Under the pieces are notes generated by a model. The model saw nothing but the letters and a program-made list of their open reading frames with translations, was not told the DNA's origin and ran no database searches. Both the position numbers and the translations under genes were made by a program. Below, piece by piece: positions 5,510 to 22,783 of a stretch of DNA of 64,000 nt. This DNA is from Gammaproteobacteria bacterium (GTDB lineage Bacteria > Pseudomonadota > Gammaproteobacteria > Pseudomonadales > JAUIET01), in the NCBI GenBank assembly GCA_030431775.1, contig JAUIHW010000002.1, forward strand, positions 131,087 through 195,086, read 5' to 3'. How positions within the stretch are numbered: the first letter of the stretch is position 1; every line of letters starts with the position of its first letter.

Positions 5510-6115
5510 ATGGCAGCGTTACAGCTGATCGTCGGCCTTGGCAACCCCGGTGCAGAATACGCCGGCACCCGCCACAATGCGGGTGCCTGGTTTATTACTG
5601 AGTTGGCCCGGCAACTGGGTTGCACCCTGCAAGCCGACAAAAAACTCAAAGGGGATACGGCCAAGGCCACGCTCGACGGCCACAGCGTGCGCTTGCTCGC
5701 GCCGTCGACCTTTATGAACCTGAGCGGCCAATCGGTCGCCGCCTGCGCCCAGTTTTATAAACTACCGCTTGAGTCTATTCTGGTTGCGCACGATGAACTG
5801 GACCTGCCTCTGGGCACGGCCAAGCTAAAACAGGGTGGCGGCCATGGCGGCAATAATGGTATTCGCAGCATTATTCAGGAACTGGGTAATCAACATGGCT
5901 TCATGCGCCTGCGCCTGGGAATTGGCCACCCGAGAGACCTTGCTCCAGAGCGCGAAGTGCACTCGCATGTGCTGGGTCGCCCCAGTCAAAGTGAGCGTGA
6001 GCAGATTGAAAACTGCATCGAGCAGGCCATCAAGGTGCTACCACTCATTGCCAATGGTCACTGGCAGAAGGCACAAACACAACTCCACAGCTACCAACCC
6101 ACACCGAGTAACTGA
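5510..6115 (+). CDS. pth: peptidyl-tRNA hydrolase
   Basis: [23 protein letters not shown] and [16 protein letters not shown] motifs. The ATG at 5510 is one codon inside the ORF-track TTG start. Confidence 0.95.
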
Positions 6116-6117
6116 AA

Positions 6118-7209
6118 ATGGGCTTTAAATGCGGTATTGTTGGGCTACCCAACGTCGGCAAATCCACTTTGTTCAACGCCTTGACCGACGCCGGCATTGG
6201 CGCCGAGAATTTCCCGTTCTGCACCATTGAACCCAATGCTGGCGTAGTGCCGGTTCCCGACTTGCGGCTTGACCGGCTGGCCGCCATCGTTAAACCGGAG
6301 AAGGTAATAGCCACAACCATGGAGTTTGTGGATATTGCCGGGCTGGTTGAAGGTGCCTCCAAAGGAGAGGGTCTGGGAAACCAGTTTCTGAGCAATATTC
6401 GCGAAACCGACGCGATCGCGCACGTCGTGCGCTGCTTTGAAGACAGCAATGTGATTCATGTCGCCAACCAAATTGACCCGGCCGCTGATATTGAAGTCAT
6501 CAACACCGAGTTGGCGCTGGCCGACCTGGACGCTGTGGAAAAAGCCATTCAAAAGCTGGTCCGTGTTGTTAAAAGCGGAGATAAGGAGGCCAAAGCCAAA
6601 ATGGCTCTGCTCGAGCGCCTGCAACCTCATTTGGATGAAGCCAAACCGGTGCGCACACTTGAGCTGACTCCAGCAGACCTGGACCTGCTGAAAGACCTAA
6701 ACCTACTGACCCTAAAACCAACCATGTACATTGCCAATGTGGATGAGGAAGGCTTTGAAAATAACTCCCACCTGGACACAGTGCAGCGCATAGCCGCCGG
6801 CGAAAACGCCGCTGTGGTTGCCATCTGCAACAAAATTGAAGCCGAAATTGCAGAACTGGAAGCGGATGAAAAAGCCGAATTCCTCGCTGAAATGGGTATG
6901 GACGAACCCGGCCTGGACCGGGTGATTCGCGCCGGCTACGAACTTCTCAACTTACAGACTTTTTTCACAGCGGGTGAAAAGGAAGTGCGCGCCTGGACCG
7001 TAAAAATCGGCGCCAGCGCCCTACAGGCCGCAGGGCGAATTCATACCGATTTCGAAAAAGGCTTTATTCGCGCTGAAGTGGTGGGCTACGACGACTTTGT
7101 CACACTCGGCGGGGAAAGCGGCGCCAAGGACGCTGGAAAATGGCGCCTGGAAGGTAAGGATTACATCATGCACGACGGTGACGTCGTCCATTTCCGGTTT
7201 AATGTCTGA
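6118..7209 (+). CDS. ychF: ribosome-binding ATPase YchF
   Basis: [19 protein letters not shown]-loop, [21 protein letters not shown], and a C-terminal TGS-like [11 protein letters not shown]. Confidence 0.95.
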
Positions 7210-7340
7210 GTAACGGCTTGCTCACTCGCACAGCAAACCATCAATAAGCTGTACTACTGCAACCATAAGCGCGGCGGGAGTTGACACCTTCAGGGCTCAG
7301 CCCCAGTATAAGCTGGCATTGCTTGCAGGGAACCCAGGAA

Positions 7341-7703
7341 ATGCTGGCCTACGATAAGGAAATGATCGACACCGTTCATGACATCCGCAAGAACCTGCCC
7401 ACCGGGCTGCGCCACGGAATCAAGCTATCCAACCCGGAACTGCCCGACGCGCTAGAGCGGATCTTCGGCCTGGTTAAAGACCCGCACACCCGCACGCTGA
7501 TCCAACACTTCTTCGACCTGGCCAAAGACGCGCGGCTGAACAGTGATAGCTCCGCAGGCGAACCGCAAATCGGCAGCCGGCATGACGACGCCACAGTAAT
7601 GCACGCATCCGAAGACGCACTGAAAGCAGTTAAAAAGCTTCTGGCCGGCCGCTTGTTCAACCGTCGCCACCCGGTAAGCGAGCCCTCCGACACGGGCGGA
7701 TGA
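7341..7703 (+). CDS. hypothetical protein (about 120 aa)
   Basis: ORF 7281..7703. An internal ATG at 7341 is preceded by AGGAA. I recognise no motif. Confidence 0.35.
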   Translation: MLAYDKEMIDTVHDIRKNLPTGLRHGIKLSNPELPDALERIFGLVKDPHTRTLIQHFFDLAKDARLNSDSSAGEPQIGSRHDDATVMHASEDALKAVKKLLAGRLFNRRHPVSEPSDTGG

Positions 7704-7756
7704 CTTGACAATCATGGGCGCTTTGAGCAGAATTCGCGCCTCACAATGCCCCGTGT

Positions 7757-7833
7757 GGCTACGTAGCTCAGTTGGTTAGAGCACAGCATTCATAATGCTG
7801 GGGTCGGTGGTTCAAGTCCACCCGTAGCTACCA
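7757..7833 (+). tRNA. elongator tRNA-Met (anticodon CAT), CCA encoded
   Basis: GGCTACGTAGCTCAGTTGGTTAGAGCACAGCATTCATAATGCTGGGGTCGGTGGTTCAAGTCCACCCGTAGCTACCA. It is very close to the E. coli metT-type sequence. The anticodon loop is TTCATAA. Confidence 0.9.
7789..7833 (+). repeat. attL-type repeat (3' half of the functional tRNA-Met)
   Basis: TTCATAATGCTGGGGTCGGTGGTTCAAGTCCACCCGTAGCTACCA matches 22659-22703 at 41 of 45 positions. Confidence 0.8.
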
Positions 7834-7839
7834 TATCTT

Positions 7840-9009
7840 TCAAAGGGTTACGTACGCGTAGCCCTTTTTGTTTCTGCCAAATGCGTGAGATTTGCGTGAC
7901 CCTCCTTCTGTCTTAGCATTTGGACTCTTCAGTAGCGTTAATGTCGGCGTTGATCCCCGCTCAAAACTCACCTTCTCGGCTGCTTCTATCAGTTCCCCGA
8001 TTTCCACTGCCGAGTAGTGTGTGGTGATTTGCTTGTTGGTGTGACCAAGCAGCACCATACGCGTCTCAACACCAATGCCAGCAGCGCGCAGGCGACGCCC
8101 GAAGGTGTGTTTCAAGTCGTGAACCCTGACCTGAGATAACTCTGTCACGTCCCGCGCCCGGCGCCACGCCTTGTTATTCATCCGCTCCACCGGTTTGTGC
8201 TCACCTTTATACTTATAGGTGAAAACGTGTTCCGGATGAATACCCCGCTGACGATTCACAACGGCTCTCGCGACGGAGTTCAGGACCACCAACCGATCTT
8301 CGCCATTCTTTACAAGTTCACCCGGTATCAGGAATACACTGGCAGACAGCTCTGGAAGAGAAACTTCCCACTCCCAGCGCAAGCCGCAGACTTCCGCTTC
8401 CCGCGTACCGGTATTGACCTTGAACAACGCCATTTCCCGCAGGTGCTTCGGCAATTCGGCAAACAGCCTCTCCTGCTCAACCCACGAAACCGGGTATGGC
8501 TTCCTGGCATCTTTCCAATCCAGCGTACGAATCAGCGGCGGTGTCTCCAGCCATGGATTGCCGCGATCATCGCGCCACAACCTGGCTGCCAACATCAATA
8601 CCCGCCGGACAACGGCCAAATCGCGATTGATCGTATTGGACTTCAGGCCCTCTTTTTTGCGTGAAGCAATAAAAGGCCCCAAGGTATCCTGATGCACCTG
8701 CCGTAACGCCAGATCCCCGATAAAAGGGTCGAGAATCCTCAGCGACTGGGCATCGCGATCTATACTGCGTTTGTGCTCATTCTCCAGAAGATACTTGGTG
8801 GCTGCCTGGCGAAAGGTGTGATCGGGTTTGATGCCGTACACCATTTCCTTTCGAATCTGCTCCAGTCTGAAGGTCAAGTATTGCTCAGCTTCCTGCCGGT
8901 CACCCGTGCCAGTGCTTTCGAAAAGGCGGCCATATCCTCTGATGCGTTTGTCGATTGTCCAGATGCCGTTTTTGCCCCGTTTGACGAGGCCCGGTGTTCT
9001 CTTCGACAT
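7840..9009 (-). CDS. tyrosine site-specific integrase (P4-like)
   Basis: 389 aa. Catalytic signature NTGTREAEVCGLRW (R), HDLKHTFGRRL (HxxR) and LLGHTNKQITTHY (H..Y). Ends 7 nt from the tRNA-Met 3' end. Confidence 0.9.
   Translation of the reverse strand: MSKRTPGLVKRGKNGIWTIDKRIRGYGRLFESTGTGDRQEAEQYLTFRLEQIRKEMVYGIKPDHTFRQAATKYLLENEHKRSIDRDAQSLRILDPFIGDLALRQVHQDTLGPFIASRKKEGLKSNTINRDLAVVRRVLMLAARLWRDDRGNPWLETPPLIRTLDWKDARKPYPVSWVEQERLFAELPKHLREMALFKVNTGTREAEVCGLRWEWEVSLPELSASVFLIPGELVKNGEDRLVVLNSVARAVVNRQRGIHPEHVFTYKYKGEHKPVERMNNKAWRRARDVTELSQVRVHDLKHTFGRRLRAAGIGVETRMVLLGHTNKQITTHYSAVEIGELIEAAEKVSFERGSTPTLTLLKSPNAKTEGGSRKSHAFGRNKKGYAYVTL
7843..7869 (+). terminator. rho-independent terminator of tRNA-Met
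   Basis: Hairpin GGGTTACG-TACG-CGTAGCCC (one G-U pair) followed by TTTTT. It lies inside the last codons of the minus-strand integrase ORF. Confidence 0.55.
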
Positions 9010-9224
9010 AGTGAATTACTCCTATGGTTCGTCGAACACCCACAGCGGGACTTATACTGCTCCACCCAGGCATCCATTTCAAGGCGGTCAAAGGCAATTC
9101 CCTGTTTGCCAATGGGAATCTCTGTCAACTGGTGTCGCACTTCCCGGTTGAAACGGTTCTTGTCCATACCCAGATAGATAGGGGCATCCCGGAGTCGAAT
9201 AAGCCGTGGCAGGATTCCTTGCAT
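8874..9224 (-). CDS. excisionase/AlpA-like small DNA-binding protein (C-terminus uncertain)
   Basis: The N-terminal about 65 aa (LPRLIRLRDAPIYLGMDKNRFNREV...GIAFDRLEMDAWVEQYK) resemble AlpA/Xis HTH proteins. It lies directly upstream of int on the same strand. The last 136 nt overlap int in another frame. Confidence 0.45.
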   Translation of the reverse strand: MQGILPRLIRLRDAPIYLGMDKNRFNREVRHQLTEIPIGKQGIAFDRLEMDAWVEQYKSRCGCSTNHRSNSLCRREHRASSNGAKTASGQSTNASEDMAAFSKALARVTGRKLSNT

Positions 9225-9226
9225 GG

Positions 9227-10096
9227 CTATCTTCCTAAATAAACTGCTGTTATCTGCTCGCGCTCATGACCCAACTCACTGGAGATTTGCAGTCGTGCTT
9301 GCTGATCCAGAACCTTTTGAGCTTTGGTGAGCTGCTGACTCGTTGGCCCACCCTGGTTCGGAGCATCCCAGCCCGTGAGCTCTCTGTAACGGGTCTGGGC
9401 ATAGGTATGTCTCAGCCCGTGCATTCTTGATAGCCCTGCATTGGCCGTCTGGCGTTCGTATACTCTTAGCTGTTGTATGTATTGCCGGTTTTGAGGAATC
9501 AAGGAATGACTGCCTGCCAGTGCTTTGGCCTGTTCAAGTAGCTGTCGCTGGTGCTCTTTACGGATGGGAATAGTTCTTTCTTTACCGCCCTTTGTCCAAC
9601 TGGCTTGAAGCCTGACCTGATCACCCTGATCCGCTTGCCGGGGTTTGATTTTCAGGGCCTCTTCCCGCCGTAAACCAAAGGCGGCTTGAAGTTGCAGGCT
9701 CATGCGAACAAAGGGGTCTGTCACCTTTTCCAGCTTGTCCTGTTCCAGGATTCTCGCCCTTGTGGTTCCAGTGGAACCATAGTGGCGATCCGGGATGCCA
9801 TAAAAATCGTTGGATCGGGCAATAACGTTTTGTTTGTTCACTGCCCTCGCCCACCAGCGCAGATTGCTCATCCGGTTCTTGATGGTGCCGGGCGACAGAT
9901 TCTGTGATTGCCACAGCTTAACCAGGGCTTCCACATGCTTGGGTTTCAAGGAATGTTTACTCATGCGCCTGAAACCCAATTCATGGAGCTGATCAGCGAT
10001 CTGGGTTAACTGATGCTCGCGATTGCTGCGGGTAGCATAGCTGCCTTCCCGGTTATGGCGACACAGTTGTTTCAATTGGTAGTTCAAGTCTCTCAT
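9227..10096 (-). CDS. second tyrosine recombinase (Integrase_1/Phage_integr_3-like)
   Basis: FGLRREEALKI (R), HGLRHTYAQTRY (HxxR) and ELGHEREQITAVYLGR (H..Y). The likely start is the ATG at 10096 (MRDLNYQL...), not the ORF-track start at 10264. Confidence 0.8.
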   Translation of the reverse strand: MRDLNYQLKQLCRHNREGSYATRSNREHQLTQIADQLHELGFRRMSKHSLKPKHVEALVKLWQSQNLSPGTIKNRMSNLRWWARAVNKQNVIARSNDFYGIPDRHYGSTGTTRARILEQDKLEKVTDPFVRMSLQLQAAFGLRREEALKIKPRQADQGDQVRLQASWTKGGKERTIPIRKEHQRQLLEQAKALAGSHSLIPQNRQYIQQLRVYERQTANAGLSRMHGLRHTYAQTRYRELTGWDAPNQGGPTSQQLTKAQKVLDQQARLQISSELGHEREQITAVYLGR

Positions 10097-10833
10097 CAGT
10101 GTAAACCTGTGTTGGTTAGTGTTTCTGATCAGCGCCAAGCCGTAGCTTGGACGGTCTGCACATGGCAGAAAGATCACGGGACACAACGCCCAAAATTGAC
10201 CTGAATATGTCTGGCCATAGACAGCAGGTGTGTTCTCTGAAGAGACCTGGTACCTGCAAACCAATATCCCGGCTATCCGGGTAAGTGGAATTACCTCCTT
10301 TATTTAGATTGAGTTAAGGGATACGAAATAGCTGCTTGTTGCAGCTAGTAACATTGACTTGGAAGGGTCGAGCCAGACGACAGCTATCAACTGTTGCTGA
10401 ATGCCACTGCCGAAAGGCTCGCTAACTGAAGGTGTATCCGGCCTATAACAACTACAAAGCTTGACCGGTACAGATTGAAAAGTACTTTTAAAAGTGCAGA
10501 CCGAAGCCCGCGTAATGAACGATAGGTCTATGCAGATTACAACTACTCTACTCTGCACTGATGCGATCACAGACCTGTTTCGCACTCTACTCCGTTTGCT
10601 TGCGCAAGGTGGAGCTTGCCTTGCCACTTTCCCGCAGTGGCCGCGGATAGAACCGTTACAACAACATTGGGGGCTAGTTTAGGAACAGATCATCCGGGTG
10701 TCATCGTGAAATTCCGGCGCAGACCGTTGCGGTTACTGGTCGGGTCGCCCACGTCACTACCGCTGGCGCTTTGCAGTGACTTGGGCGAATACCTGTATTA
10801 AGTGCGGGTGATTCCAGCTAAACCATTGTTGAT

Positions 10834-13800
10834 TCAATGCTGCGCCAACTCATTGGCAATCATCTCGGCCTGCTTGAGAACCGTTTCGGTAGCCAATAAC
10901 TGCATGTCAGGCGGATAGCCATACTGGCGTAGCAATCGCTTCACAATCACCTTCAATTTGGCGCGCACATTCTCCTTAATCTGCCAGTCGATACTGGCGT
11001 TCTCACGGATTTTTTTCGTCAGCACGACAGCGAGTTCGCGTAAACTCTCCTGTTTCATCAGCTCGCGAGCACTGTCATTATTGGCAACGGCGGTATAAAA
11101 AGCATACTCATAGTCTGACAGGCCCATCTGTTCTGCCTCGACATCGGAGGCGACAATCTCCTTGCTGATTTTTATCAGTTCGTCGATAACCTCGGCGGCC
11201 GTGAGAATTTTGTTGTGATATTTTTTGATAGAGGCTTCAAGCATCTCCATCAGCGATTTACTTTGCACCAGATTGGTTTTCGCTCGCACTCTCAGCTCGT
11301 CATTCAGCAACTTTTTCAATACTTCCAGCGCCACATTCTGGTGTTGATAACCTTTCAGTTCCGCCAGAAACTCATCGGAAAGAATGGAAATATCCGGCTT
11401 CTTGAGACCAGCCGCATCGAAGACATCAATCACCTGCTCTGAAACCAGTGCTTGGTCGATCACCTGGCGAATAGTGGTTTCGATTTCTTCGTTTGTCTTA
11501 CCGCCTCCGGTACTGTCAAACTTGGCGAGCCTGGCTTTCACCGCCTGAAAAAAAGCAATCTCATCTTTAACATCCAGTGCCTGTTCGTGGGGTACGGCAA
11601 TCGCAAAGGCCTGAGAGAGCATTGTCACTTCATTGATATATCGCTTCTTGCCATCCTCCAGCCCCAGAATATGATCTTCCGCGGCCAGTATCAGCGACAG
11701 TTTTTTCGCGGTATCCGCCTCGAAATAGTCTTCATACGCAAAGCCATGAAACATGGCGGACACCACTTCTATTTTCTCCAGCAGCAGTGCGACTGCCTGT
11801 TCCTGCGCCAAAGTAGGGTCGCCCTTACCACCCGCTTCCGAATAAAAAGACAACGCCTCTTTGAGGTCAGATGCAATCCCCAAATAGTCCACCACCAAAC
11901 CACCGGGTTTGTCGCCGTGAACACGGTTTACCCGCGCAATGGCCTGCATCAGATTGTGCCCCTTCATGGGCTTGTCGATATAAAGGGTATGCATAGCAGG
12001 GGCATCAAATCCCGTCAGCCACATATCGCGGACGATAACTAATTTGAGTTCATCGTCATCATTCTTCATTCGTTCGGCCAGCAACTTACGCTGCTGCTTG
12101 GTTGTGTGGTGTCTGGCCAGTTTGGGGCCGTCACTGCTGGAAGCCGTCATCACCACCTTGATCGTGCCCTTGGTCAAATCATCGGAATGCCATTCAGGTT
12201 TAAGTCTAATAATTTCATCATAAAGCTCGGCGGCAATTCGGCGGGACATACTGACAATCATGCCCTTACCCGCAAATACCTCCTGCCGGGCGTCGAAATG
12301 GCTGACGATATCCTGAGCAATATTCCTGATCCGCCGCTCACTGCCAATCAGAGCCTCCATCTGCGTCCACTTCGCCTTGGCTTTCTGGGTTTCCGTCAGT
12401 TCGTCCTGTTCCAGTTCCGCATCTAACGCCTTAACCAGATGCTTACCCTCTTCACTCAACCCCACTTTGGCAAGACGACTCTCGTAGAAGATGCGCACCG
12501 TAGCACCATCCTCAACAGCCTGGGCAATATCATAAATATCCACGTAATTGCCGAATACCGCCGGGGTATTCACATCGGTTTTTTCAATGGGTGTGCCGGT
12601 AAATCCGAGATAAGTCGCCGCAGGAAGCGCATCACGCAGATATTTGGCAAAACCATACACCACCTTCTTGCCAACCACCTGCCCGTTCTCGTCTTTTTCA
12701 TCGACGGTTTTCGCACTAAAGCCATACTGGGTACGGTGCGCCTCGTCGGCAATTACTACGATATTGCGTCGCTCGGAAAGGCACTCGTAGATATTGCCCT
12801 CTTCCGGCTGAAATTTCTGGATGGTGCTAAACACCACACCACCGGAAGCCACCTGTAACAGTGACTTTAACTGTTCCCTGCTTTCCGCCTGCTGCGGTTC
12901 CTGCCGCAACAACTGCTTGCAGGCAGCAAAGGTGTCGAAAAGCTGATCGTCCAGATCATTGCGGTCGGTAATCACCAGAATGGTCGGGTTATCCAGTGCC
13001 AACACAATTTTGCCGGTGTAAAACACCATGGAGAGCGACTTACCGGAACCCTGGGTATGCCAGATAACCCCCGCCTTCTGGTCGCCACTGGGTTGATTCG
13101 TCACATTAGGCAACCCGTAACTGGCGGGGGATTCAGCCACTTTGTTACCTGTTTCAGAACCCGCCGCTCGCAAAGTGGACGTGACAGCGGCGTTTACCGC
13201 GTAATACTGGTGATAGGAGGCAATCTTCTTCACGGTGTTGATGGTGATCTGCCCCGTTTCCGGGTCTTCTTTTTTCGATTTTTCAAACACCATAAAATGA
13301 CGAATCAAATCCAGCAATGTGGCTTTGTTCAGCATACCGTTAATCAGGGTTTCCATCTGACTGACCAGGTGCGATGCTTCGCTTTTGCCATCCGCTGTTT
13401 TCCAGGCCATAAAACGGGAGTAACCCGCTGACAGCGAACCCGCCCTTGCTTCCAAGCCATCAGAAACCACCAGCAGGGCGTTATAGGCAAACAGGCTGGG
13501 GATTGTGGATTTATAAGTTGCCAACTGTTGAAACGCCGATTTGATAGTGGCGTTTTCATCCGTCGCGTTTTTTAGCTCAATCACCACCAGCGGCAAACCA
13601 TTGATGAACAGCACCAGGTCAGGCCGCTTGTTCACATGGTTTTCAATCACCGTAAACTGGTTAGCCACCACAAACTCGTTGTTTTCTGGTCGTTCAAAAT
13701 CCACCAGCCAGACATACTCGCCACGCTCGTCACCATCTTGATGGCGACTGACTTTCACCCCTTCCGTCAGCAGGCGGTGAAACGCTTCATTATTGGCCAG

Positions 13801-14046
13801 CAAATCCGGCGACTGAATACGGGCAACTTCTTTTGATGCTTCAGCAATCAATGTATCAGGCAGATGGGGGTTAATACGGCGAATGGCTTGTGTGAGCCGT
13901 TCTGTGAGCAACACTTCATCATAGCGGCTACGCTCTGGATGCTCAGAGTCCGGGGCGATATCCGGCGCATGAATATAGTCATAGCCAAGCCGCTCAAACA
14001 GCTTGATGGCAAACTCTTCAATGGCGGATTCGGTTAAACGGCTCAT
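10834..14046 (-). CDS. hsdR: type I restriction enzyme, R subunit
   Basis: 1070 aa. Walker A HTQGSGKSLSMVF, DEAH box VIADEAHRTQ, helicase motif VI QAIARVNR, and an N-terminal nuclease region. Confidence 0.95.
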   Translation of the reverse strand: MSRLTESAIEEFAIKLFERLGYDYIHAPDIAPDSEHPERSRYDEVLLTERLTQAIRRINPHLPDTLIAEASKEVARIQSPDLLANNEAFHRLLTEGVKVSRHQDGDERGEYVWLVDFERPENNEFVVANQFTVIENHVNKRPDLVLFINGLPLVVIELKNATDENATIKSAFQQLATYKSTIPSLFAYNALLVVSDGLEARAGSLSAGYSRFMAWKTADGKSEASHLVSQMETLINGMLNKATLLDLIRHFMVFEKSKKEDPETGQITINTVKKIASYHQYYAVNAAVTSTLRAAGSETGNKVAESPASYGLPNVTNQPSGDQKAGVIWHTQGSGKSLSMVFYTGKIVLALDNPTILVITDRNDLDDQLFDTFAACKQLLRQEPQQAESREQLKSLLQVASGGVVFSTIQKFQPEEGNIYECLSERRNIVVIADEAHRTQYGFSAKTVDEKDENGQVVGKKVVYGFAKYLRDALPAATYLGFTGTPIEKTDVNTPAVFGNYVDIYDIAQAVEDGATVRIFYESRLAKVGLSEEGKHLVKALDAELEQDELTETQKAKAKWTQMEALIGSERRIRNIAQDIVSHFDARQEVFAGKGMIVSMSRRIAAELYDEIIRLKPEWHSDDLTKGTIKVVMTASSSDGPKLARHHTTKQQRKLLAERMKNDDDELKLVIVRDMWLTGFDAPAMHTLYIDKPMKGHNLMQAIARVNRVHGDKPGGLVVDYLGIASDLKEALSFYSEAGGKGDPTLAQEQAVALLLEKIEVVSAMFHGFAYEDYFEADTAKKLSLILAAEDHILGLEDGKKRYINEVTMLSQAFAIAVPHEQALDVKDEIAFFQAVKARLAKFDSTGGGKTNEEIETTIRQVIDQALVSEQVIDVFDAAGLKKPDISILSDEFLAELKGYQHQNVALEVLKKLLNDELRVRAKTNLVQSKSLMEMLEASIKKYHNKILTAAEVIDELIKISKEIVASDVEAEQMGLSDYEYAFYTAVANNDSARELMKQESLRELAVVLTKKIRENASIDWQIKENVRAKLKVIVKRLLRQYGYPPDMQLLATETVLKQAEMIANELAQH

Positions 14047-14723
14047 TCTTCAGCATCCCCTGCCAACTCGTCACCAGACTCCATAAATAATTTGTACTCA
14101 AGTTCATAGGCTTGGTAGTCCAAACCATATAAAACCTCACTTGCCACAAAAGAGTACACACCCATTTGGAAATCTCCAAAAGACTGATCCCAGGATTCGT
14201 TAAAATCTTCAGCATCGGCATAAATAATTTTTTCTCCTACCGCGACTTCACTCTCCTTCGGAACAGCCATATCTTTGCGTTCTTCAAAAGAACGGATCAG
14301 AAACACAGCCACAACTACCGTGCTATCAATTAAAAAGTCTCGAGTGAGCAAGTCAATACTGCTGTTTCTATCTCTAAGCTCGTCCATTGATCTGCCGTGA
14401 GATGTGGGGCTTATACCATTTCGTAGTGTGCCGATCTGCTGGCCAATATTTGCCAGTGAGCCTGAAATAGTTCGCACCATATCCTCATTTGGATAGCCCA
14501 GGGCGGTAAAAGCCGCTTTTATCACTCCATTGATTGTTGGGCTTGATCCCAACTCAACCTCCTTAACACTACAAATCTCCTTACCGATGGATTCAAGTAA
14601 AGCCTTCGCATTTTCAAGGGAATGACTGAAGTCAGATTCAAGATGGCCTTCCATCCTGTCGATGTAAATACCCAGGTCTTTCCAGCGCCCATATTGCTCA
14701 ATCGTCTTCCGTAACTTTTCCAT
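14043..14723 (-). CDS. Abi_C-like (abortive-infection C-terminal domain-like) protein embedded in the R-M operon
   Basis: 226 aa. IGQQIGTLRNGISPTSHGRS resembles the RN...HG core of the Abi_C family as I recall it. The stop overlaps the hsdR start by 4 nt. Confidence 0.5.
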   Translation of the reverse strand: MEKLRKTIEQYGRWKDLGIYIDRMEGHLESDFSHSLENAKALLESIGKEICSVKEVELGSSPTINGVIKAAFTALGYPNEDMVRTISGSLANIGQQIGTLRNGISPTSHGRSMDELRDRNSSIDLLTRDFLIDSTVVVAVFLIRSFEERKDMAVPKESEVAVGEKIIYADAEDFNESWDQSFGDFQMGVYSFVASEVLYGLDYQAYELEYKLFMESGDELAGDAEE

Positions 14724-14728
14724 TAAGA

Positions 14729-15553
14729 TTAACCTTGACTGCGCTTACCGCTCAAGTTCGCAATAGCAGCCTGAAGCACCTGCCAACTTATTTTAGCCGT
14801 ATGTATATCAGGATTGAATTTCTGAACCGCCTGCTGGCGAGGGTGAATATAGTTTCTGAAATCTTTCAACGAATGACTGTATTTCTTTACATCCAGGGAA
14901 AGCAGCCCGACTTCATGGGCCACGTTAATCAGTGAGTCTAACGTCCAATCCTGAAAATACCTCACCTTACCTTCGCTGTCTTTCGGTGCTGCATTAGCCT
15001 GGTTAAAAAACTGGGGGTTCTTTGATGCAGCGTCCTGCAACAAACCTTCGAGGGTACTGCCACAGAGAAACACAACCGCCAATGACGCTCTCGCTTCCAG
15101 TGCTTTGCCGATCTCATCAATACGTTGTTCCAGAATGGGCTGCAACTGCATATCAATATTTAGCCTTGCCCAGTCAATTCGGGCAAAGTCCTGTTGGAGA
15201 AACTCGTTTTCAGTGGATGACTGGCGAGCGTTATCGTCGTTATTTCCTAATAGCCGGCGTGTAATTTCCGATGCCTTACTTTGGTCTTCACCAGCAACCT
15301 GATCGACCGCACAAGCGTATTCCAATAGTGCATCAAGAACGGTGCCAACCAACTCATCAGGTTCGACTTCCCAAAACGCCCTGAGTCGTTTCATTTTGGA
15401 ATTACCATTGAACCGGTATTTCTGGTTATCAATATCGACCCCATGTTCCCTAAAAAACTCTGCATAGGTTCTATCGGTAAAATCCAGTACATAGCCACCG
15501 CGATCAAACAATCGCTCAAAAATCACTTTCTCGTGGGCTTTAAGCTGGGACAT
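14729..15553 (-). CDS. hypothetical protein embedded in the R-M operon (possible HEPN-like C-terminal helical domain)
   Basis: The ATG at 15553 (MSQLKAHEK...) is 1 nt after the hsdS stop. The C-terminus reads LKDFRNYIHPRQQ, an R-N-x-x-H arrangement that is one residue shorter than the canonical HEPN Rx4-6H. The function assignment is weak. Confidence 0.55.
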   Translation of the reverse strand: MSQLKAHEKVIFERLFDRGGYVLDFTDRTYAEFFREHGVDIDNQKYRFNGNSKMKRLRAFWEVEPDELVGTVLDALLEYACAVDQVAGEDQSKASEITRRLLGNNDDNARQSSTENEFLQQDFARIDWARLNIDMQLQPILEQRIDEIGKALEARASLAVVFLCGSTLEGLLQDAASKNPQFFNQANAAPKDSEGKVRYFQDWTLDSLINVAHEVGLLSLDVKKYSHSLKDFRNYIHPRQQAVQKFNPDIHTAKISWQVLQAAIANLSGKRSQG

Positions 15554-15554
15554 T

Positions 15555-16790
15555 TCAGGCCACTCTAACCGCGCCGCTGATGAGTTTCGGTAGCAGCATG
15601 TCACGAAGACTTGTCAGCTGTTTAATTTGACTGGAATTAAAAATCTGCTTTTCAATAATCGGCTCCATATGGGAATTCATCTCTTGCAGCTCTTTAGCCG
15701 ATGGCACAAGCACCACGGCCTCATCGAGATCACCACGCTTGATATGCCCCATTGTGGTTGCATGGGCCTGCGAAATTGCAATGAATTCTTGCAGGTGGTG
15801 CCTGCACCACATCAGATAAAACCATTTAGGAAACTCATCCGACGTCACTTTGAACAAATGCTGATTTAACACACAGGTTTCACCATCCCAAATTTTCACC
15901 ATAAGCGAGGCAGACCATGAAAAAATCACATCACCTGCTTTAACAATGTATTTTTCGTCCACTTTGCTGCTGGCAAAATCTGATGACTCTGAAATACCGG
16001 ACTGCAGCTCCCTGATTTTCAATACAGGTAGCTTTTCAACGTCGTTTTCAGGTGGATATTTTTGACAGGCTAAGCCATTCAAAAAATTTGCAATGCTGCT
16101 TAAAGGCCTTTCCTCCCAATCCTCCTGAGCTTCTTCCACAAACCACTGGCGGAACAGGGTTCCAGCGATGGCTTCGAGGGTTTTGTTTTGGCGATTGAGT
16201 AGGTCGATTTTGTCGTCAAGGCTGGAGAGAACAGAGGCAATGGCTTTTTGCTCCTCTATACTGGCGGGTAACACCACTGGCAAGTCTCTCTGTGCGGTAA
16301 TTCCTACATAAGCACGGGTCGATCCACTATCGCCGTGATTAATCAAGGTTTCTTGAAATTCAGGAGAATCGAAATAGTATTTTAGATATAGATTTGAAAG
16401 TTTTTCGTAGTCCTTGATCCGATAATACGTCACTTGGGGAGTCAACATGATAAAGTCGGTTTCGATTCTCCCAACTATCGCAGTTCTACCTAAGCTGGCC
16501 TTATGGGTTAGCAATACATCGCCAGGAATAGAAAACCCTTTTCTTAAAGAGTCTGCTTGTTCTCTCGAAATAAACTTGCAGTTATGCAAATCAATTTTCC
16601 CGTCGTTTATATCCGTTGCCATTACAAAGGGAATACCTGAATCTACAAAATCATCTCCTTTAGGATGAATTCCTCCGTGATTCCCATCTAGTGGCTTTTC
16701 AATTATTCCATGCGCTATGAGGTCAGCTACTGATACGCAATCCCAATCAATTGGAATATCACCCACATCCGTTGACTGAAACTCACTCAC
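15555..16790 (-). CDS. hsdS: type I R-M specificity subunit
   Basis: 411 aa. Two target-recognition halves are separated by conserved helices (LPASIEEQKAIASVLSSLDDKIDLLNRQNKTLEAI, and the C-terminal LRDMLLPKLISG). Overlaps hsdM by 4 nt. Confidence 0.9.
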   Translation of the reverse strand: MSEFQSTDVGDIPIDWDCVSVADLIAHGIIEKPLDGNHGGIHPKGDDFVDSGIPFVMATDINDGKIDLHNCKFISREQADSLRKGFSIPGDVLLTHKASLGRTAIVGRIETDFIMLTPQVTYYRIKDYEKLSNLYLKYYFDSPEFQETLINHGDSGSTRAYVGITAQRDLPVVLPASIEEQKAIASVLSSLDDKIDLLNRQNKTLEAIAGTLFRQWFVEEAQEDWEERPLSSIANFLNGLACQKYPPENDVEKLPVLKIRELQSGISESSDFASSKVDEKYIVKAGDVIFSWSASLMVKIWDGETCVLNQHLFKVTSDEFPKWFYLMWCRHHLQEFIAISQAHATTMGHIKRGDLDEAVVLVPSAKELQEMNSHMEPIIEKQIFNSSQIKQLTSLRDMLLPKLISGAVRVA

Positions 16791-18322
16791 ACTTTCACCC
16801 GCGCCAAACTCTGTTCAATCGCCTTATTGAGCCTTTCCTCTTCCTTTAGCTGCTCATTAAACTCAGCTTTCAATGCGGCAAATCGCTCGGCAAAGTCAAA
16901 ATCATCCTCTTCTTCCGCCAACCCCACATAGCGGCCCGGTGTGAGCACATAGTCCAGTTCGGCAACGCGCTCTAGGGATACGGAGGCACAGAAGCCTTTG
17001 ACATCCTCATAGCCGTTTTCGCCAGTACGCCAGTTGTGGTAAATACCAGCTATCTGTTGGATGTCATCGTGGGAGAGTTCACGGGTACGACGGTTAATAA
17101 GGTGGCCAAGATTGCGGGCATCAATAAACAGAATTTCGCCTTTGCGAGGGTGGCCATTGTTTCTGGATCGGTTCATAAACCAGAGCGCGGCCGGTATCTG
17201 GGTATTCAAAAACAGTTTGGCAGGCAGGTTGACGATGCAGTCGATCAGGTTGCCATCGGCCACCAGGCTTTTGCGGATATCGCCTTCACCAGAGGTTTTG
17301 CTCGTAAGTGCGCCTTTGGCCAGTACCACACCTGCCATGCCTGTGGGTGCAAGGTGATAAATAAAATGCTGCAACCAGGCGAAGTTGGCATTGCCTGGCG
17401 GCGGTGTGCCGTATTGCCAGCGGGCATCGCCACGTAGCTGTTCACCACTCCAGTCGCTGACGTTGAAGGGTGGGTTGGCGATAATGTAGTCGGCCTTCAA
17501 ATCCTTGTGGGCATCATTAAGGAAGGAGCCTTCGTTATTCCATTTGACCTGTGAACTGTCGATGCCGCGAATGGCCAGATTCATTTTTGCCAGCCGCCAG
17601 GTGGTCTGGTTACTCTCTTGCCCGTAGATAGAAATATCGTTGATGCGGCCCTGGTGCTCCTCGACAAACTTTTCTGATTGCACAAACATGCCGCCACTGC
17701 CACAGCAGGGGTCGAATACCCGGCCTTTGTAAGGCTCCAGCATATTGACCAGCAATTCCACAATACTGCGTGGGGTATAGAACTGGCCACCCTGTTTGCC
17801 TTCCGCCAGGGCGAATTCGCCAAGGAAGTATTCAAACACATGGCCGAGCACATCGGCACTGCGGGCTTTGGCGTCACCCAGTGCGATATTGCTAACCAGA
17901 TCAATCAGGCCACCCAGTGCGGTTGGGTCGAGGTTTTGCTTGGCGTAAACCTTGGGTAGTACGCCTTTGAGGGAGTTGTTCTCCTTCTCAATGGCATCCA
18001 TCGCCGCATCCACATGAATACCGATATCAGGCTGTTTGGCCAGCGTTAGCAGGTACGACCAGCGCGCATCCTGCGGCACGAAGAAGACGCTCTCAGCCTT
18101 GTATTCATCCTTGTCCTCCGGGTCGGCTCCGGCATATTCACCGTCGCCTGTTTGCAGTTTCTGGAACAATTCTTCAAAAGCATCGGAAATGTATTTGAGG
18201 AAAATCAGCCCCAACGCCACATGTTTGTATTCGGCGGCATCAATGTTTTTCCGCAGCTTGTCCGCTGACTTCCACAGCTGTTTTTCCAGTGGTTCTTCTT
18301 TTGTTTGGCTTTTTCTGGCCAT
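16787..18322 (-). CDS. hsdM: type I R-M N6-adenine DNA methyltransferase subunit
   Basis: 511 aa. SAM motif [12 protein letters not shown], catalytic IIANPPFN, and an HsdM N-terminal domain ([32 protein letters not shown]). Confidence 0.95.
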
Positions 18323-18350
18323 CTTTGTTACTTCCTTAAATACAATTCAG

Positions 18351-20273
18351 TTACGTGGCGCTCAAAGGCAAAGGGAGAGAGGGTGACGAAAGTACTGATT
18401 TCAACAAGTCGTCGTCTTCAATATCGGCATAACGATTCAGCTTTTCTCGTAACTTGAATAACCGCTTCTCTGCCGTCGATATCAGTACAGAAAAAGTCAC
18501 TGCTGTGACATTTCCGCAGTCTCCAATTTTTTGGCCCGGTTCTGTTTTAGGCTCAATTTTTTCCCCAACCACGAAAGCGTTCACAAAAGGCTTCGAGCCT
18601 ATAAGATCGCTATAGGCGATATCCTGAACATACCCACCTGCCTGATTTATTTCATCTCTGCCAATGGAATAACCACCACGCTTTACTTCTATCAACAAAA
18701 CACTTTTTGTCCGTTCAAGGCCATTTTCATCAACGCTGTCTAATGCTTGCGCTCCGAGGGTGGACTCCTTAAGCACAACAATATCCGGTCGTTTCTTCGC
18801 ATTGAGAAAGGCTGCCTGATCAATCTTTTGTCCGAATACCTGCGCGATGGTTTTTACAAGCCCCACATTGGAAGAGGAATATTCACTGGATTCGTATTCT
18901 GGGCCGAACAACCAGCGAGCTTTAAGCACCAATGGGTGAATGGTGTGTAATTCGTCTGCATCTTTATTGCCGGAGAATCTGCGCAAGGCTTCGATGACTT
19001 TCAATCTCACATCAATCTCGGAAAGGACAACGAGTGCATCCTGGGCCGTCCATTCGGCAAGCAACTCATCAAGGGAATCAACGTCGTCAATACTGATGGA
19101 TGTCAGTTTGCTTAACAGGCTTTGGCCTGAGCGAGATTTCTCAAGATTGATAGCCGCTTTTACTGCTAGCTGAAGGGTTTTTGGGTCAAGGTCAGGGTTT
19201 TCTTCCAACAAGCCATCAACAAACCTGGATACTTCCAAGGCCTCAACCGGCGACATGGTCTGCAGCTCTTGCTTATTGTGATAGAGCACATCTTCCTTAG
19301 CCTCGCGAATCTCGTCTTTCAATAATTCACGCCGCTTTTCACTGATATATTGAGCAAGCTCTTCTGCCACTTGCTGTATTAAGGTGCTGCCCGGCTTGAA
19401 GCCTGACCAATCTTCCAGAATCTCTTCTCTCAGCCCATCCGTGTTAACGACAACTACGAACCTTTTTCCAAAGGCCCTTCGTCCGTCAGCCAGCGAGATA
19501 CCGCCCAATGTCCAGCTATGTTCCCCAACCCGCCGTCCACCTACCCAAATAGCTACACCCTGAAATATGTTGTCTCTTCTACCCTGTTTTGAGTCAACCA
19601 ACGTAACGTGCAATTTGATCCCGGCCACTGTTAGTTCAGCCTGATCGACCACACCTGGGTGCTCATGCAGAGGAATGCTTTTTCCGTTAACTGAAATTGA
19701 AAAATCCGGCGTTGAAATAAACCGGGCGGCCAGTGTTTCCGCGATTTTCTCGTCAGAAACAAAGTGTTGACTAACAGCCACCGACAGCCTGGTGCCATGA
19801 CCTGTTTTTTGGCGCGTGTCTTTTGAAGTGACGTTCAATGGCTCTTCACCAACGGCGACGGATACCTGGAAAATGTTGCAACTTCCATCCCGCCAGGTTT
19901 CAACCTGATATTCATCCCCAAAACAAAGCAATCCATGTCGCCCTACACCATTTCGCCCAAAGGCTTTTCTCTTTAATCCCTTTCTATCCGCCGGGAAGGA
20001 AACATTGGGGCCTTGATGAGCAAGTCGGTTATAGCGCAGCATCATCCACCTTTCGCGAAAATGCTGTTCAGTCATTCCTACGCCATCGTCTTCAATAACC
20101 ATGACACCACCATTCGAATCAGGGACAACAATATCCACCTTGCTGGCTCCAGCATCATAGGCGTTAGCCACAAGTTCAGTAAGTGCAATGTCGGGCCTAT
20201 GGACTATTGCTCCAAGGTCACGCCGGAGGAAGTCCTTCTCGTAGGTGGTTTCAAATAAGTCCTGGTTTCTCAT
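18351..20273 (-). CDS. GHKL (MORC/Hsp90-type, HATPase_c_3-like) ATPase with a C-terminal PD-(D/E)xK nuclease-like domain
   Basis: Bergerat motifs ELVANAYDA (ExxxNxxDA), DDGVGM (DxGxG), GRNGVG (GxxGxG) and GHGTR. A long helical middle region follows. The C-terminus has RPDIVVL...(about 30 aa)...LLIEVKRGG, which is a PD...ExK arrangement. Confidence 0.75.
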   Translation of the reverse strand: MRNQDLFETTYEKDFLRRDLGAIVHRPDIALTELVANAYDAGASKVDIVVPDSNGGVMVIEDDGVGMTEQHFRERWMMLRYNRLAHQGPNVSFPADRKGLKRKAFGRNGVGRHGLLCFGDEYQVETWRDGSCNIFQVSVAVGEEPLNVTSKDTRQKTGHGTRLSVAVSQHFVSDEKIAETLAARFISTPDFSISVNGKSIPLHEHPGVVDQAELTVAGIKLHVTLVDSKQGRRDNIFQGVAIWVGGRRVGEHSWTLGGISLADGRRAFGKRFVVVVNTDGLREEILEDWSGFKPGSTLIQQVAEELAQYISEKRRELLKDEIREAKEDVLYHNKQELQTMSPVEALEVSRFVDGLLEENPDLDPKTLQLAVKAAINLEKSRSGQSLLSKLTSISIDDVDSLDELLAEWTAQDALVVLSEIDVRLKVIEALRRFSGNKDADELHTIHPLVLKARWLFGPEYESSEYSSSNVGLVKTIAQVFGQKIDQAAFLNAKKRPDIVVLKESTLGAQALDSVDENGLERTKSVLLIEVKRGGYSIGRDEINQAGGYVQDIAYSDLIGSKPFVNAFVVGEKIEPKTEPGQKIGDCGNVTAVTFSVLISTAEKRLFKLREKLNRYADIEDDDLLKSVLSSPSLPLPLSAT

Positions 20274-20313
20274 GTAAATCCTTTTCCCTGTTCAATCTCA
20301 GCGTTAGTTGTCC

Positions 20314-20958
20314 TTATTCCGAGACGGTCAATATGACGCTCAAATTATCAAGCCCCTGTTTTTCAATTCGACTAACTTCTCTCTTTAGCTTTTCTTCGAT
20401 AGATTCAGCGTCCCGAAACCAGTTATCGTCTGCATATGCCCAAAAGCCATCGCTACAAAGTAATAATCGTTCGCCTGTATATTCGAAGCTGTTTACTTCC
20501 AGCGAGCCTGTATCAGTAATCTTTACCCAGCCTGCTACTTTGTTGCGTTGTTCAGCATATTCAGTTTCTGTTAGTTCGCCGGTTTTAAGCCGCTGAAAAG
20601 CTGGAACATGATCAATAGTCAGCCATTTAATGCCTTGATCGCCAACCTTGCCAACTCTGCAGTCACCGGCATGGATCGTATAGAGCCTGCCACCATGAAT
20701 GAGCGCAGCCGCAACACAAAATGAGTAATCTCCGCAATATTTACCCTTCAAATTTGCTGCTGCCCTGGCGAAGCCATCGCGCAGGTTTTGTTCGATATCT
20801 GTAACTTCGCCCTTCAGTGAGAGATTTTGCGAACACACCTCCCGGCAGAAGGCACGAACCAGTTCTCCACACTCGGGTTGTTGCTGCACCCCATCACATA
20901 CGATGTAGAGTGGGGAACCATATATATACTGGCTTGAGTTACGTGGTCGGTATTCCAT
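20314..20958 (-). CDS. divergent short PP2C-family (SpoIIE-like) Ser/Thr phosphatase
   Basis: 214 aa. IVCDGV (DG motif), HAGDCRV (compare GDSR), LLLCSDGFW and GLDNLSVI (terminal DN). The N-terminal RxxNED-like region reads RPRNSSQ. Confidence 0.6.
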   Translation of the reverse strand: MEYRPRNSSQYIYGSPLYIVCDGVQQQPECGELVRAFCREVCSQNLSLKGEVTDIEQNLRDGFARAAANLKGKYCGDYSFCVAAALIHGGRLYTIHAGDCRVGKVGDQGIKWLTIDHVPAFQRLKTGELTETEYAEQRNKVAGWVKITDTGSLEVNSFEYTGERLLLCSDGFWAYADDNWFRDAESIEEKLKREVSRIEKQGLDNLSVILTVSE

Positions 20959-20998
20959 TCCCTGGTGCTACCAGAAAGGCTCATAAACACTTTTACCT

Positions 20999-21700
20999 TC
21001 ACTGGCTATCAACTCTACTCAGCTGCCCAAACCTCTCTTTCACCAATCCCAAACGATCAGGCGATTCGCTGGGTATTGAGCTTGCCAGCAGGTAATCAAA
21101 ATCCTTGTTCTTCAAAAATCTGCCTATTTCCCGTGCAATGAAACTGCGCAATTCTTCAGGGCTAGATGTAATCTCATCTACAAGCGCATCTCTGCCATTC
21201 ACCAGGGTCACAATATCCTCTGCATCCCTGCTCGCCAACATGCTGTCGCCGCGGCCGTTAAAAGCTTCAAGCTTGGTTGCCAACAGGTAATTCGCCGAAA
21301 CAATTTTTATCGTCGGGCCATTGGGGAGGTTATAAGGCACTGCGTGCTGCCGCCCTTCCTTGAACCACCGATTGCTGAATCCGATAACGTCTTCACTATC
21401 GGGCATTACATCAACCTTGATACCTCTGCATATATAACGGCAAATTGGTTCGTTTTCTTCGTCCGGCTCGTGCTGTTCTTTAAACCCTCTGTCTTTCAGC
21501 CGTTCAATGAGTTTGTGATATTCCACATAACCAGCAACTGAGACGATGAAATCAACATCCTTTGTACTGCGGATATCCATGGGCTGAGCATCATCCAGAT
21601 GAAGCGAAATAGTAGTCCCGCCTACAAAAGCAATTTCACCCAACAACTCCTCCCCAAGGGCTTCGGCAATATCTCGGAGCAAGTCCTCATGTTCACTCAT
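20999..21700 (-). CDS. nucleotidyltransferase-fold protein (AbiEii-like toxin candidate)
   Basis: The start MSEHEDLL at 21700 is 1 nt after the upstream stop. FVGGTTISLHLD...RSTKDVDFIV fits the Pol-beta NTase pattern GG..(n)..D.D. Confidence 0.6.
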   Translation of the reverse strand: MSEHEDLLRDIAEALGEELLGEIAFVGGTTISLHLDDAQPMDIRSTKDVDFIVSVAGYVEYHKLIERLKDRGFKEQHEPDEENEPICRYICRGIKVDVMPDSEDVIGFSNRWFKEGRQHAVPYNLPNGPTIKIVSANYLLATKLEAFNGRGDSMLASRDAEDIVTLVNGRDALVDEITSSPEELRSFIAREIGRFLKNKDFDYLLASSIPSESPDRLGLVKERFGQLSRVDSQ

Positions 21701-21701
21701 G

Positions 21702-22367
21702 TTACTTGCCCTCCAGAGTTTTCGACAAACGCTCTCGTGCGATTTGCTGACTTCGTGAATCACCTATTCGAAAAACATCGATAACAGCCAGCAGGCCATA
21801 TAGTTCTGTGTCTATCAACGCTGCCTTGGCTGCAGATTTATAGAGAGGTTCAACGGACATGCCCCTAACATTACCCAACGGGTCAGGCCATACTGGAGGC
21901 ATATCACTGGAACTGGCAATATCGCCTTTAAAAGATGGCGCTGCATGAGCTGTGGGAATTCCCCGGGCAATAGCACCAACTTTGGCACTGAATACTACAG
22001 GCGCACCGAATTGTATAAATTTCCCCAAAGATGGACGATTGACCCGTATATCATTGCCAATCTTTATCAAAAGCCCGGATTCAATTGCTCGCCCGACAGC
22101 TTTATTGGTTTCGCTCAAGGATATGAACAATTCAGAGGCGAGTTGACGATAGTTCCATTTGGCCTGTATTTTTGTTTCACGGCTCAGAAACTCTTCTATT
22201 ACCTCTAGCTCTCTTTCTGCTTCTCCATTACTGCCAGAGTCAACTTCCCATACAATGCCCTCTAGCTCGCGCATTGATGACCGTGGCGAGTAAGGGCGAC
22301 TGTCCGCTGAGCGAAGCTCCACCGACAGTATTTTGCAGCATACGAGTAAGTCCTGAGGTTTAAGCAT
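21702..22367 (-). CDS. putative wHTH DNA-binding partner (AbiEi-like antitoxin role)
   Basis: 221 aa. N-terminal MLKPQDLLVCCKIL and a central WNYRQLASELFISLSETNKAVGRAIESGLL HTH-like segment. Position and coupling with the NTase gene support the call. Confidence 0.4.
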   Translation of the reverse strand: MLKPQDLLVCCKILSVELRSADSRPYSPRSSMRELEGIVWEVDSGSNGEAERELEVIEEFLSRETKIQAKWNYRQLASELFISLSETNKAVGRAIESGLLIKIGNDIRVNRPSLGKFIQFGAPVVFSAKVGAIARGIPTAHAAPSFKGDIASSSDMPPVWPDPLGNVRGMSVEPLYKSAAKAALIDTELYGLLAVIDVFRIGDSRSQQIARERLSKTLEGK

Positions 22368-22403
22368 TATCGGCGCATTGTTTCCTGTTTCCGAAATGCG
22401 AAC

Positions 22404-22434
22404 ATTTTAGAACATTCCCCGCTTGGTTTGTCAA
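22404..22434 (-). promoter_or_regulatory. candidate sigma70 promoter of the nine-gene array
   Basis: The minus strand reads TTGACA (22434-22429), a 19-nt spacer, then TAAAAT (22409-22404), about 35 nt upstream of the ATG at 22367. The spacer is longer than optimal. Confidence 0.3.
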
Positions 22435-22658
22435 GACTCGATCATTTTCAAGGGGACTATTTCAGATTTTATTTGGCGCATTTCACCTTTTGCGACAAAT
22501 AAAGTGGCGCATTCTTAGAATTACGCCAGAAAACCCGAAAACTACTTGCGTGAGATTTGCGTGACTTGTTGTGAAAAGTTGTGCTCTGTACTGCAATTTT
22601 ACTGTGGGTGTCGAAATTAAAGTTAATAAAATCAATTAGTTAAAAATTACCAGCCAGT

Positions 22659-22703
22659 TTCATAATGCTGGGGTCACTGGTTCAAGTCCAGTCGTAGCTA
22701 CCA
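22659..22703 (+). repeat. attR-type repeat (displaced 3' half of tRNA-Met; not a complete tRNA)
   Basis: TTCATAATGCTGGGGTCACTGGTTCAAGTCCAGTCGTAGCTACCA. There is no D-arm or 5' acceptor upstream. The 4 mismatches are two compensated T-stem base pairs. Confidence 0.8.
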
Positions 22704-22783
22704 TTTTCAACGGCTTTCCGAATAGCTTCAAATTCCACAGCTGTTAGTGGTGTGAACAGTTCAATATTTTTTGCCTGTATTGC

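Follow-up and report, generated by a model that had tools for sequence, protein, structure and literature searches.

A type I restriction-modification (R-M) operon within a 64,000-nucleotide (nt) stretch of a gammaproteobacterial genome (assembly GCA_030431775.1, contig JAUIHW010000002.1; the whole stretch is called the window here) holds two further genes between hsdS and hsdR, to which we refer as gene A and gene B. Our analysis favors, at a probability of about 0.65, a scenario in which these are independent single-gene modules of the HEPN class, predicted latent ribonucleases (RNases) that would provide a second line of abortive defense behind restriction. The scenario builds on the Abi_C domain of gene B and the likely HEPN domain of gene A, on candidate catalytic residues that are invariant in either family, on a modular N-terminal domain in gene A, and on the distribution of the two genes, which are tied to R-M operons but mostly occur without each other.

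Organization of the operon

The operon lies on the minus strand and comprises five genes.

16787-18322, minus strand: hsdM, type I methyltransferase subunit, 511 amino acids (aa); Pfam N6_Mtase (E 1.1e-107) and HsdM_N
15555-16790, minus strand: hsdS, specificity subunit, 411 aa; Pfam Methylase_S in two stretches
14729-15553, minus strand: gene A, 274 aa; AbiJ-NTD-type N-terminal module and divergent DUF4145-like HEPN domain
14043-14723, minus strand: gene B, 226 aa; solo AbiJ-type HEPN protein (Abi_C)
10834-14046, minus strand: hsdR, restriction subunit, 1,070 aa; Pfam HSDR_N, SWI2_SNF2, T1R_D3-like and T1RH-like_C (E 7e-128)

As judged from Pfam matches and open reading frames, HsdM, HsdS and HsdR are all present with open frames, making the host operon a type I R-M system with its full set of subunits. 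The order hsdM-hsdS-A-B-hsdR had been described in an earlier, sequence-only reading of this DNA, and both this order and the tight junctions claimed along with it are borne out by the sequence: the TGA of hsdS is followed by a single base and the ATG of gene A, the TAA of gene A is separated from the ATG of gene B by 5 nt (tctta), and the stop codon of gene B overlaps the start codon of hsdR as ATGA. The genes hsdS and hsdM overlap by 4 nt. The ATG at 15553 is also where gene A begins in its relatives, all 27 of the 27 aligned homologues starting with the corresponding MSxLK; a longer reading from a GTG (15604, 291 aa) was rejected, as the homologues start at the ATG.

Pattern scans detected no terminator-like site on the minus strand inside gene A or gene B, and the counts of promoter and terminator patterns did not rise above those in shuffled sequence. 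From the spacing of the genes, it is reasonable to expect that A and B are co-transcribed with the R-M genes.

Gene B is an Abi_C protein

Gene B matches the Pfam family Abi_C (PF14355) with 37.1 bits (E 3.5e-9, residues 69-143), the cut-off of this family being 24 bits. In PADLOC-DB v2 it finds no significant model, its match to AbiJ (residues 29-143) being a weak one at an E value of 0.035. Taken together, these two alignments delimit an AbiJ-type HEPN domain, which by this sequence comparison makes up the first ~148 residues of the protein (residues ~1-148). Its family counts 778 homologous clusters, with PF14355 found in every one among the matches listed. The domain contains the following motif:

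14394-14426, minus strand: LRNGISPTSHG motif of gene B (R101, N102, six residues, H109), from the homologue alignment

The R, N, S, P, T, S, H and G of this motif are invariant in 27/27 homologues, and the arrangement R101-N102-GISPTS-H109 fits the pattern R-polar-X(2-6)-H, in which the spacer of 2-6 residues is the range reported for the Abi_C family (PMC13590631). Following the HEPN domain, residues 150-226 form a conserved C-terminal extension of ~75 residues with an acidic tail, in which Y168, FN, WD, G183, F185, M187, Y190, AY and E209 are conserved.

Among characterized proteins, gene B can be compared to SadR of Staphylococcus aureus, an Abi_C protein validated in 2026 as an RNase for single-stranded RNA that requires its R, N and H residues for both cleavage and phage defense (PMC13590631). 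With SadR, a single-gene defense, and with AbiJ of Lactococcus lactis it shares the Abi_C domain and the R-N-X-H motif; unlike them, it has no N-terminal sensor domain, carries the C-terminal extension and is embedded in type I operons. By analogy, we predict gene B to be a latent ribonuclease of the AbiJ/SadR type.

Gene A combines a modular N-terminal domain with a HEPN-like domain

Gene A belongs to a family of 2,935 homologous clusters, counted at 90% identity, which share 60-85% identity and come from very different phyla. The full-length AlphaFold2 (AF2) model of the protein, with a pLDDT score (predicted local distance difference test) of 77, consists of two helical domains, residues 1-101 and 138-267, and a disordered linker at residues 105-124. 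The parts relevant to its function are as follows.

15239-15553, minus strand: modular domain at the N-terminus of gene A, residues 1-105 (conserved GYVLDF ... SKxKRLRxFW), from a profile search
14732-15142, minus strand: HEPN-like helical domain of gene A, residues 138-274, from an AF2 domain model, Foldseek and the DUF4145 hidden Markov model
14837-14860, minus strand: FRNYIHPR motif of gene A (R233-x3-H237), candidate catalytic dyad, from homologue alignments

What kind of domain does the C-terminal part represent? Matches to DUF4145 (PF13643) occur in 18/28 homologues of gene A and always cover the same region; the best of them, at 24.8 bits, is the sole one above the cut-off of 23.1 bits, and distant actinobacterial and sphingomonad relatives score 13.8-20.4 bits. 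When the domain was modeled alone from a more diverse alignment, AF2 returned a pLDDT of 90.3 and a predicted template modeling (TM) score of 0.85, and in a Foldseek search with this model against the PDB, ~24 of the top 30 entries were HEPN proteins, with TM scores of 0.4-0.56 and including Csm6, HepT toxins, the HEPN domain of sacsin, TM0613 and ST0689. The same search with the full-length model gave no match, for which the combination of two domains and a disordered linker is probably the cause, and a gene A profile run against PDB sequences yielded chance-level matches only. Judged by profile and model, the C-terminal domain of gene A is likely a HEPN domain. Its FRNYIHPR motif sits at the end of the DUF4145 profile alignment (profile positions ~63-74) and is invariant in 28/28 and 28/28 homologues in two alignments; it is kept from Proteobacteria to Actinomycetota, at an overall identity of 35-40%. 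The dyad has the form Rx3H, one residue under the canonical Rx4-6H. Catalytic competence of the domain is plausible.

The N-terminal domain, predicted to be mostly helical but for a short strand that follows helix 1, is widespread. A profile built from gene A residues 1-110 retrieved 2,769 clusters (50% identity); the proteins are 87-664 aa long, and the match is always at their N-terminus. Among the top 150 of these 2,769, the domain is joined to TIR_2 (23), TIR (11), Abi_C (10), DUF4145 (6) and Mrr_cat (3), and further to SEFIR, SLOG, ThsB_TIR, DpnII-MboI, Ymh, CHAT and a deoxyribosyltransferase. Examples of such fusions in genomes of the same phylum are those to Mrr_cat in L100, L101 and L102 and to a CAP12-type TIR domain in L104; in L103, the module precedes 290 aa without a Pfam match. 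Plasmid genes with the module are annotated as 'abortive infection family protein'.

This pattern of fusions is the one that Anantharaman et al. gave in 2013 for AbiJ-NTD1 and AbiJ-NTD2, two of the AbiJ-NTD domains, for which they proposed a role in sensing components of the invader and in restraining the effector (PMC3710099). The AbiJ-NTD and DUF4145 proteins of that study resemble gene A in the partners of the module (Abi_C, DUF4145, Ymh, Mrr, TIR and deoxyribosyltransferase), in the DUF4145-like HEPN domain that follows it and in the location of the gene in R-M operons. Gene A differs from them in that its module is neither AbiJ_NTD3 nor AbiJ_NTD4, in a HEPN domain too divergent for a DUF4145 match, and in the Rx3H spacing. 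When the Pfam models AbiJ_NTD3 and AbiJ_NTD4 were run against the genome, neither matched gene A, and AbiJ-NTD1 and AbiJ-NTD2 are absent from the Pfam matches of gene A and its homologues. We call the module AbiJ-NTD-type by its likeness in fusion pattern to the 2013 description. By analogy to the role proposed there, it probably senses an infection cue.

A second point of comparison is RAZR (PD-T7-4), an example of a DUF4145 domain that acts as an abortive RNase (PMC13017515). Gene A shares with this single-gene abortive defense a DUF4145-type HEPN domain and a separate N-terminal sensing part; it differs in lacking the zinc ribbon of RAZR and in its dyad, Rx3H compared to the Rx7H of RAZR.

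Much of this domain architecture had been anticipated from the letters of the DNA. The sequence-only reading had likened the RN...HG core of gene B to Abi_C, had seen a near-HEPN arrangement in the C-terminal half of gene A and had recognized FRNYIHP as one residue short of Rx4-6H, all of which agrees with the profile and structure searches; the modular, sensor-type N-terminal domain of gene A had escaped it.

Gene A and gene B are independent modules

Do the two genes belong together? To answer this, we examined 79 gene A loci from genomes and 80 gene B loci from metagenomes, together with a co-occurrence sample of 400 genomes of the same phylum. Gene A and gene B are adjacent, in either order, in ~5 of ~160 loci. 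Only 2/80 B loci and 1/79 A loci have gene A adjoining gene B in the order hsdS-B-A (reversed order: L015, L111, L112), and the A-B order of the window recurs only in the closest relative of the island that carries the operon (L096). Within the 400 genomes, full-length gene A was found in ~8 and gene B in 2, with both present only in the window's own genome. A comparison of the two families by hhalign gave no signal. Since each gene usually stands alone, co-occurrence is missing from the other sampled genomes and the order is reversed in some loci, we conclude that gene A and gene B are independent modules and do not form a unit. The specific two-gene pair of the sequence-only reading is not supported: each gene is mostly alone in its slot, and the survey of type I operons for the same two-gene insert that had been proposed as a check retrieved the A-B order from L096 only.

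The settings of the two genes differ in breadth. In 80/80 loci, gene B was found in an hsd operon that belongs to the type I family of the window, all of these loci being from close relatives (53-71% identity) that were gathered with patterns from its own clade; it directly follows hsdS in 67/80 and directly precedes hsdR in 42/80. Examples in which it stands alone between hsdS and hsdR come from Methylobacter luteus, a marine contig and a Chlorobium genome. Gene A resides in type I operons in ~25/79 loci, with hsdM and hsdR about 80% identical to those of the window, and the cargo between gene A and hsdR varies: it may be DUF6088 and AbiEii (AbiEi/AbiEii), RES and others, RhuM, Fic, a 160-aa protein with a Schlafen-like (SLFN) protein, or nothing at all. 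More distant relatives of gene A occur after R-M genes of MmeI-type, type III and Eco57I-like systems, after a TIR gene with a reverse transcriptase, and beside Fic; further defense genes are also among the neighbors. In mycobacteria, relatives follow a cluster of DUF1156, DUF499-HEPN_Swt1, helicase and Schlafen genes.

The mycobacterial setting was seen in L049, L051 and L053 (Mycobacterium/Mycolicibacterium; ~100-10830), where the gene A relative ends a conserved cluster in which a NOV_C helicase and a DUF1156 methylase-like protein are joined by HEPN_Swt1-DUF499 and Schlafen/AlbA_2 proteins. The cluster is an R-M-like system with two different HEPN proteins.

Searches by tblastn with gene A found no match in phage genomes and half-length matches only in plasmids. 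The conservation of gene A, at 60-70% identity across phyla, fits a recent horizontal spread.

The operons into which the genes have been placed are closely related. Nearly all loci with relatives of A or B have an hsdM that is 74-87% identical to that of the window, and hsdR is 73-84% identical in related loci. The identity of hsdS is only 24-73%, as is expected from swapped target-recognition domains. In the window itself, the content of guanine plus cytosine is 0.44-0.47 over hsdS-A-B (14000-16999), compared to 0.50-0.54 in hsdR and hsdM (10500-13999 and 17000-17999), which suggests that middle and conserved ends of the operon differ in their history and would fit a swapped middle. In some operons of the family (Chlorobium, L094/L095, 4829-5911), a DUF1016/YhcG nuclease-like gene lies between hsdM and hsdS, pointing to a second insertion point besides the slot after hsdS.

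The island and its other genes

The operon is carried by a small genomic island at a tRNA gene.

7789-22704, no strand assigned: genomic island of ~14.9 kb at tRNA-Met, carrying the operon; from the tRNA 3' repeat and integrases
7757-7833: tRNA-Met

A 46-nt 3' part of tRNA-Met (7789-7834) recurs at 22659-22704 with 91% identity. This repeat of the tRNA 3' end at a distance of 14.9 kb delimits a small tRNA-integrated defense island. A second, exact repeat of 19 nt is found just within each end (7882-7900 and 22547-22565), and two genes identified as integrases by Pfam (7840-9009 and 9227-10264) are located at one end of the island. A megablast search with the region against complete Escherichia coli genomes gave no match.

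On the 5' side of hsdM and on the same strand (18351-22367, minus), lie four tightly spaced genes. As judged with Pfam, they encode a HATPase_c_3 (MORC-like) protein of 640 aa, a PP2C_2-like protein of 214 aa, an AbiEii nucleotidyltransferase toxin of 254 aa and a 221-aa protein without a Pfam match, whose gene overlaps that of AbiEii and which is probably its AbiEi-type partner. The same genome has a separate gene for a protein of 184 aa, located near a contig end (contig C14, ~20678-21232; L098:1179-1733). It combines a CxxC...CxxC zinc ribbon with a true DUF4145 domain (45 bits) and is a candidate for a RAZR-like (PD-T7-4-type) single-gene defense.

Discussion

What can be said about the role of two HEPN-class genes in the middle of a type I operon? 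That such genes occur in this setting is an established theme, as the sequence-only reading had stated: a description of HEPN genes in R-M operons, those for DUF4145 and sensor-less AbiJ proteins among them, dates from 2013 (Anantharaman et al., PMC3710099). The site between hsdS and hsdR is a published hotspot (PMC11411939, PMC12255303, 10.1101/2024.01.29.577857), which houses TgvAB on VPI-2 of Vibrio cholerae and DarTG2 in EPEC (PMC11411939, PMC12255303), and the embedding of defense genes in R-M operons has been raised to a general principle, termed 'guilt-by-embedding' (10.1101/2024.01.29.577857). Gene A and gene B share with TgvAB, DarTG2 and other embedding candidates the slot itself and the union of complementary systems in one operon; they differ from TgvAB and DarTG2 in the effectors, which there are a GmrSD-like DNase and an ADP-ribosyltransferase toxin-antitoxin system.

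In the scenario that we favor, gene A and gene B would have been inserted in succession into a cargo slot directly 3' of hsdS, the recipient being a family of type I R-M operons that moves horizontally, of which the present member sits on the 14.9-kb tRNA-Met island. Both would be transcribed and translationally coupled with hsdS and hsdR, as suggested by junctions that measure 1 nt and 5 nt or overlap. The N-terminal module of gene A would read an infection cue, and its DUF4145-like HEPN domain with the RNYIH motif would be the effector. When a phage evades or disables restriction, the RNases would cleave cellular RNA, phage RNA or both, and the infection would be halted. RNase activity, triggers and the abortive outcome are extrapolated here from the characterized relatives SadR, RAZR and PrrC, and catalysis is favored by the invariance of R, N and H in the families of A and B.

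Several observations weigh against this scenario. The gene A protein itself has no match in Pfam, NCBIfam or PADLOC (in Pfam none even at an E value of 10), its domain model found no individually significant match in the PDB, the best E value in Foldseek being 0.68, and hhalign gave no signal between its family and the zinc-ribbon DUF4145 (RAZR-like) protein of the same genome, the diversity of the alignments being low (effective number of sequences, Neff, about 2). The Rx3H spacing falls outside the canonical Rx4-6H, so that catalysis by gene A is not assured, and HEPN domains can be non-catalytic, as ~20% of DUF4145 members are without catalytic residues (PMC3710099). Finally, the high conservation of gene A could reflect a constrained role other than that of a toxin.

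An alternative view is that one or both proteins are non-catalytic accessories with a HEPN fold, which would modulate R-M, for example in restriction alleviation, assembly or the control of HsdR, or would serve as an addiction module of the island. Apart from the non-canonical dyad and a conservation unusually high for a defense effector, this could draw on the ligand-binding or inactive nature of some HEPN families (PMC3710099), and a gene for a stoichiometric subunit would be well placed between hsdS and hsdR, in translational coupling with them. However, R, N and H are strictly invariant in both families, and the N-terminal module of gene A is also found on killing effectors, among them TIR, Mrr and Abi_C proteins. 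Moreover, many operons of the same family are without A, B or both, with other toxins filling the slot, such that neither can be a needed subunit; gene A as an essential R-M subunit was rejected on these grounds. We therefore regard an accessory role as improbable, and for the regulation of HsdR, which the sequence-only reading had offered as an alternative, we found no support. Lower still do we rate an obligate two-gene system, for instance a toxin-antitoxin pair or a HEPN heterodimer, which we consider hardly credible. While the two genes are adjacent, co-oriented and 5 nt apart in the window, while L096 shares the arrangement and while HEPN domains do act as dimers (PMC13017515), either gene is usually found without the other, the few additional loci with both (2/80 and 1/79) have them in reversed order, the window's own genome is the only one of the 400 sampled to have both, and profile comparison reveals no relationship between them. 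An obligate or toxin-antitoxin pair was thus rejected on distribution.

The main rival to our reading is a guard of the kind realized by PrrC of the type IC system EcoprrI, which is possible yet tentative. Here gene B, and perhaps the clade of gene A that is embedded in type I operons, would be bound and silenced by the complex of HsdM, HsdS and HsdR, and the RNase would be set free only by an attack on the R-M enzyme by an anti-restriction protein of a phage (Ocr, ArdA or Stp-like); in contrast to the scenario that we favor, it is the integrity of R-M that would be sensed, not, autonomously, a phage component. PrrC is likewise a latent RNase of the HEPN class, which gene A and gene B are predicted to be, with its gene amid hsd genes and expressed along with these as a second line behind restriction, and like gene B it is found almost exclusively embedded in type I systems (10.1101/2024.01.29.577857). 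The embedding of gene B in a single type I family in all 80 loci, in 67 of them directly after hsdS, speaks for such a guard, as does the constancy of hsdM and hsdR (73-87% identity across loci) against a variable hsdS. Gene B is without a sensor, its conserved C-terminal extension could serve as a docking surface, and sensor-less AbiJ proteins are those found in R-M operons (Anantharaman et al., PMC3710099). On the other hand, neither A nor B possesses the regulatory ABC-ATPase domain of PrrC, which together with masking by R-M and the tRNA-Lys target belongs to the distinguishing features of that system. The gene A family is also found beside MmeI, type III, Eco57I-like and reverse transcriptase/TIR genes and in non-R-M contexts, and gene A at least can therefore not depend on one Hsd partner. 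The exclusivity of gene B may in part be due to sampling, the 80 loci being close relatives, and linkage is by itself no proof of binding. Taking this thought further, the position after hsdS could be a dedicated docking slot, in which gene B and the embedded clade of gene A would act as PrrC-like guardians without an ATPase, bound to HsdM or HsdR, silent as long as the complex is intact and fired by phage anti-restriction proteins. We hold this extended version to be rather unlikely; were it true, the two stacked, unrelated HEPN RNases would be two different tripwires for one operon.

Our preferred reading, two independent latent RNases behind restriction, leaves current views unchanged in so far as the class was predicted in 2013 and relatives, namely SadR and RAZR, have been validated since. 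What is new is the very large family of gene A, which has neither a name nor a model, the subfamily of gene B, which is always embedded in our sample, and the stacking of A and B. The adaptor that gene A has at its N-terminus, likewise without a name, is widespread (~2,800 clusters at 50% identity) and precedes TIR, HEPN and nuclease effectors. The locus as a whole illustrates layered immunity in a clean and natural form: restriction and two different predicted suicide RNases are united on a small mobile island. Gene B, whose subfamily seems bound to type I operons no less tightly than PrrC, offers a tractable case in which to ask how a HEPN RNase without a sensor is kept silent.

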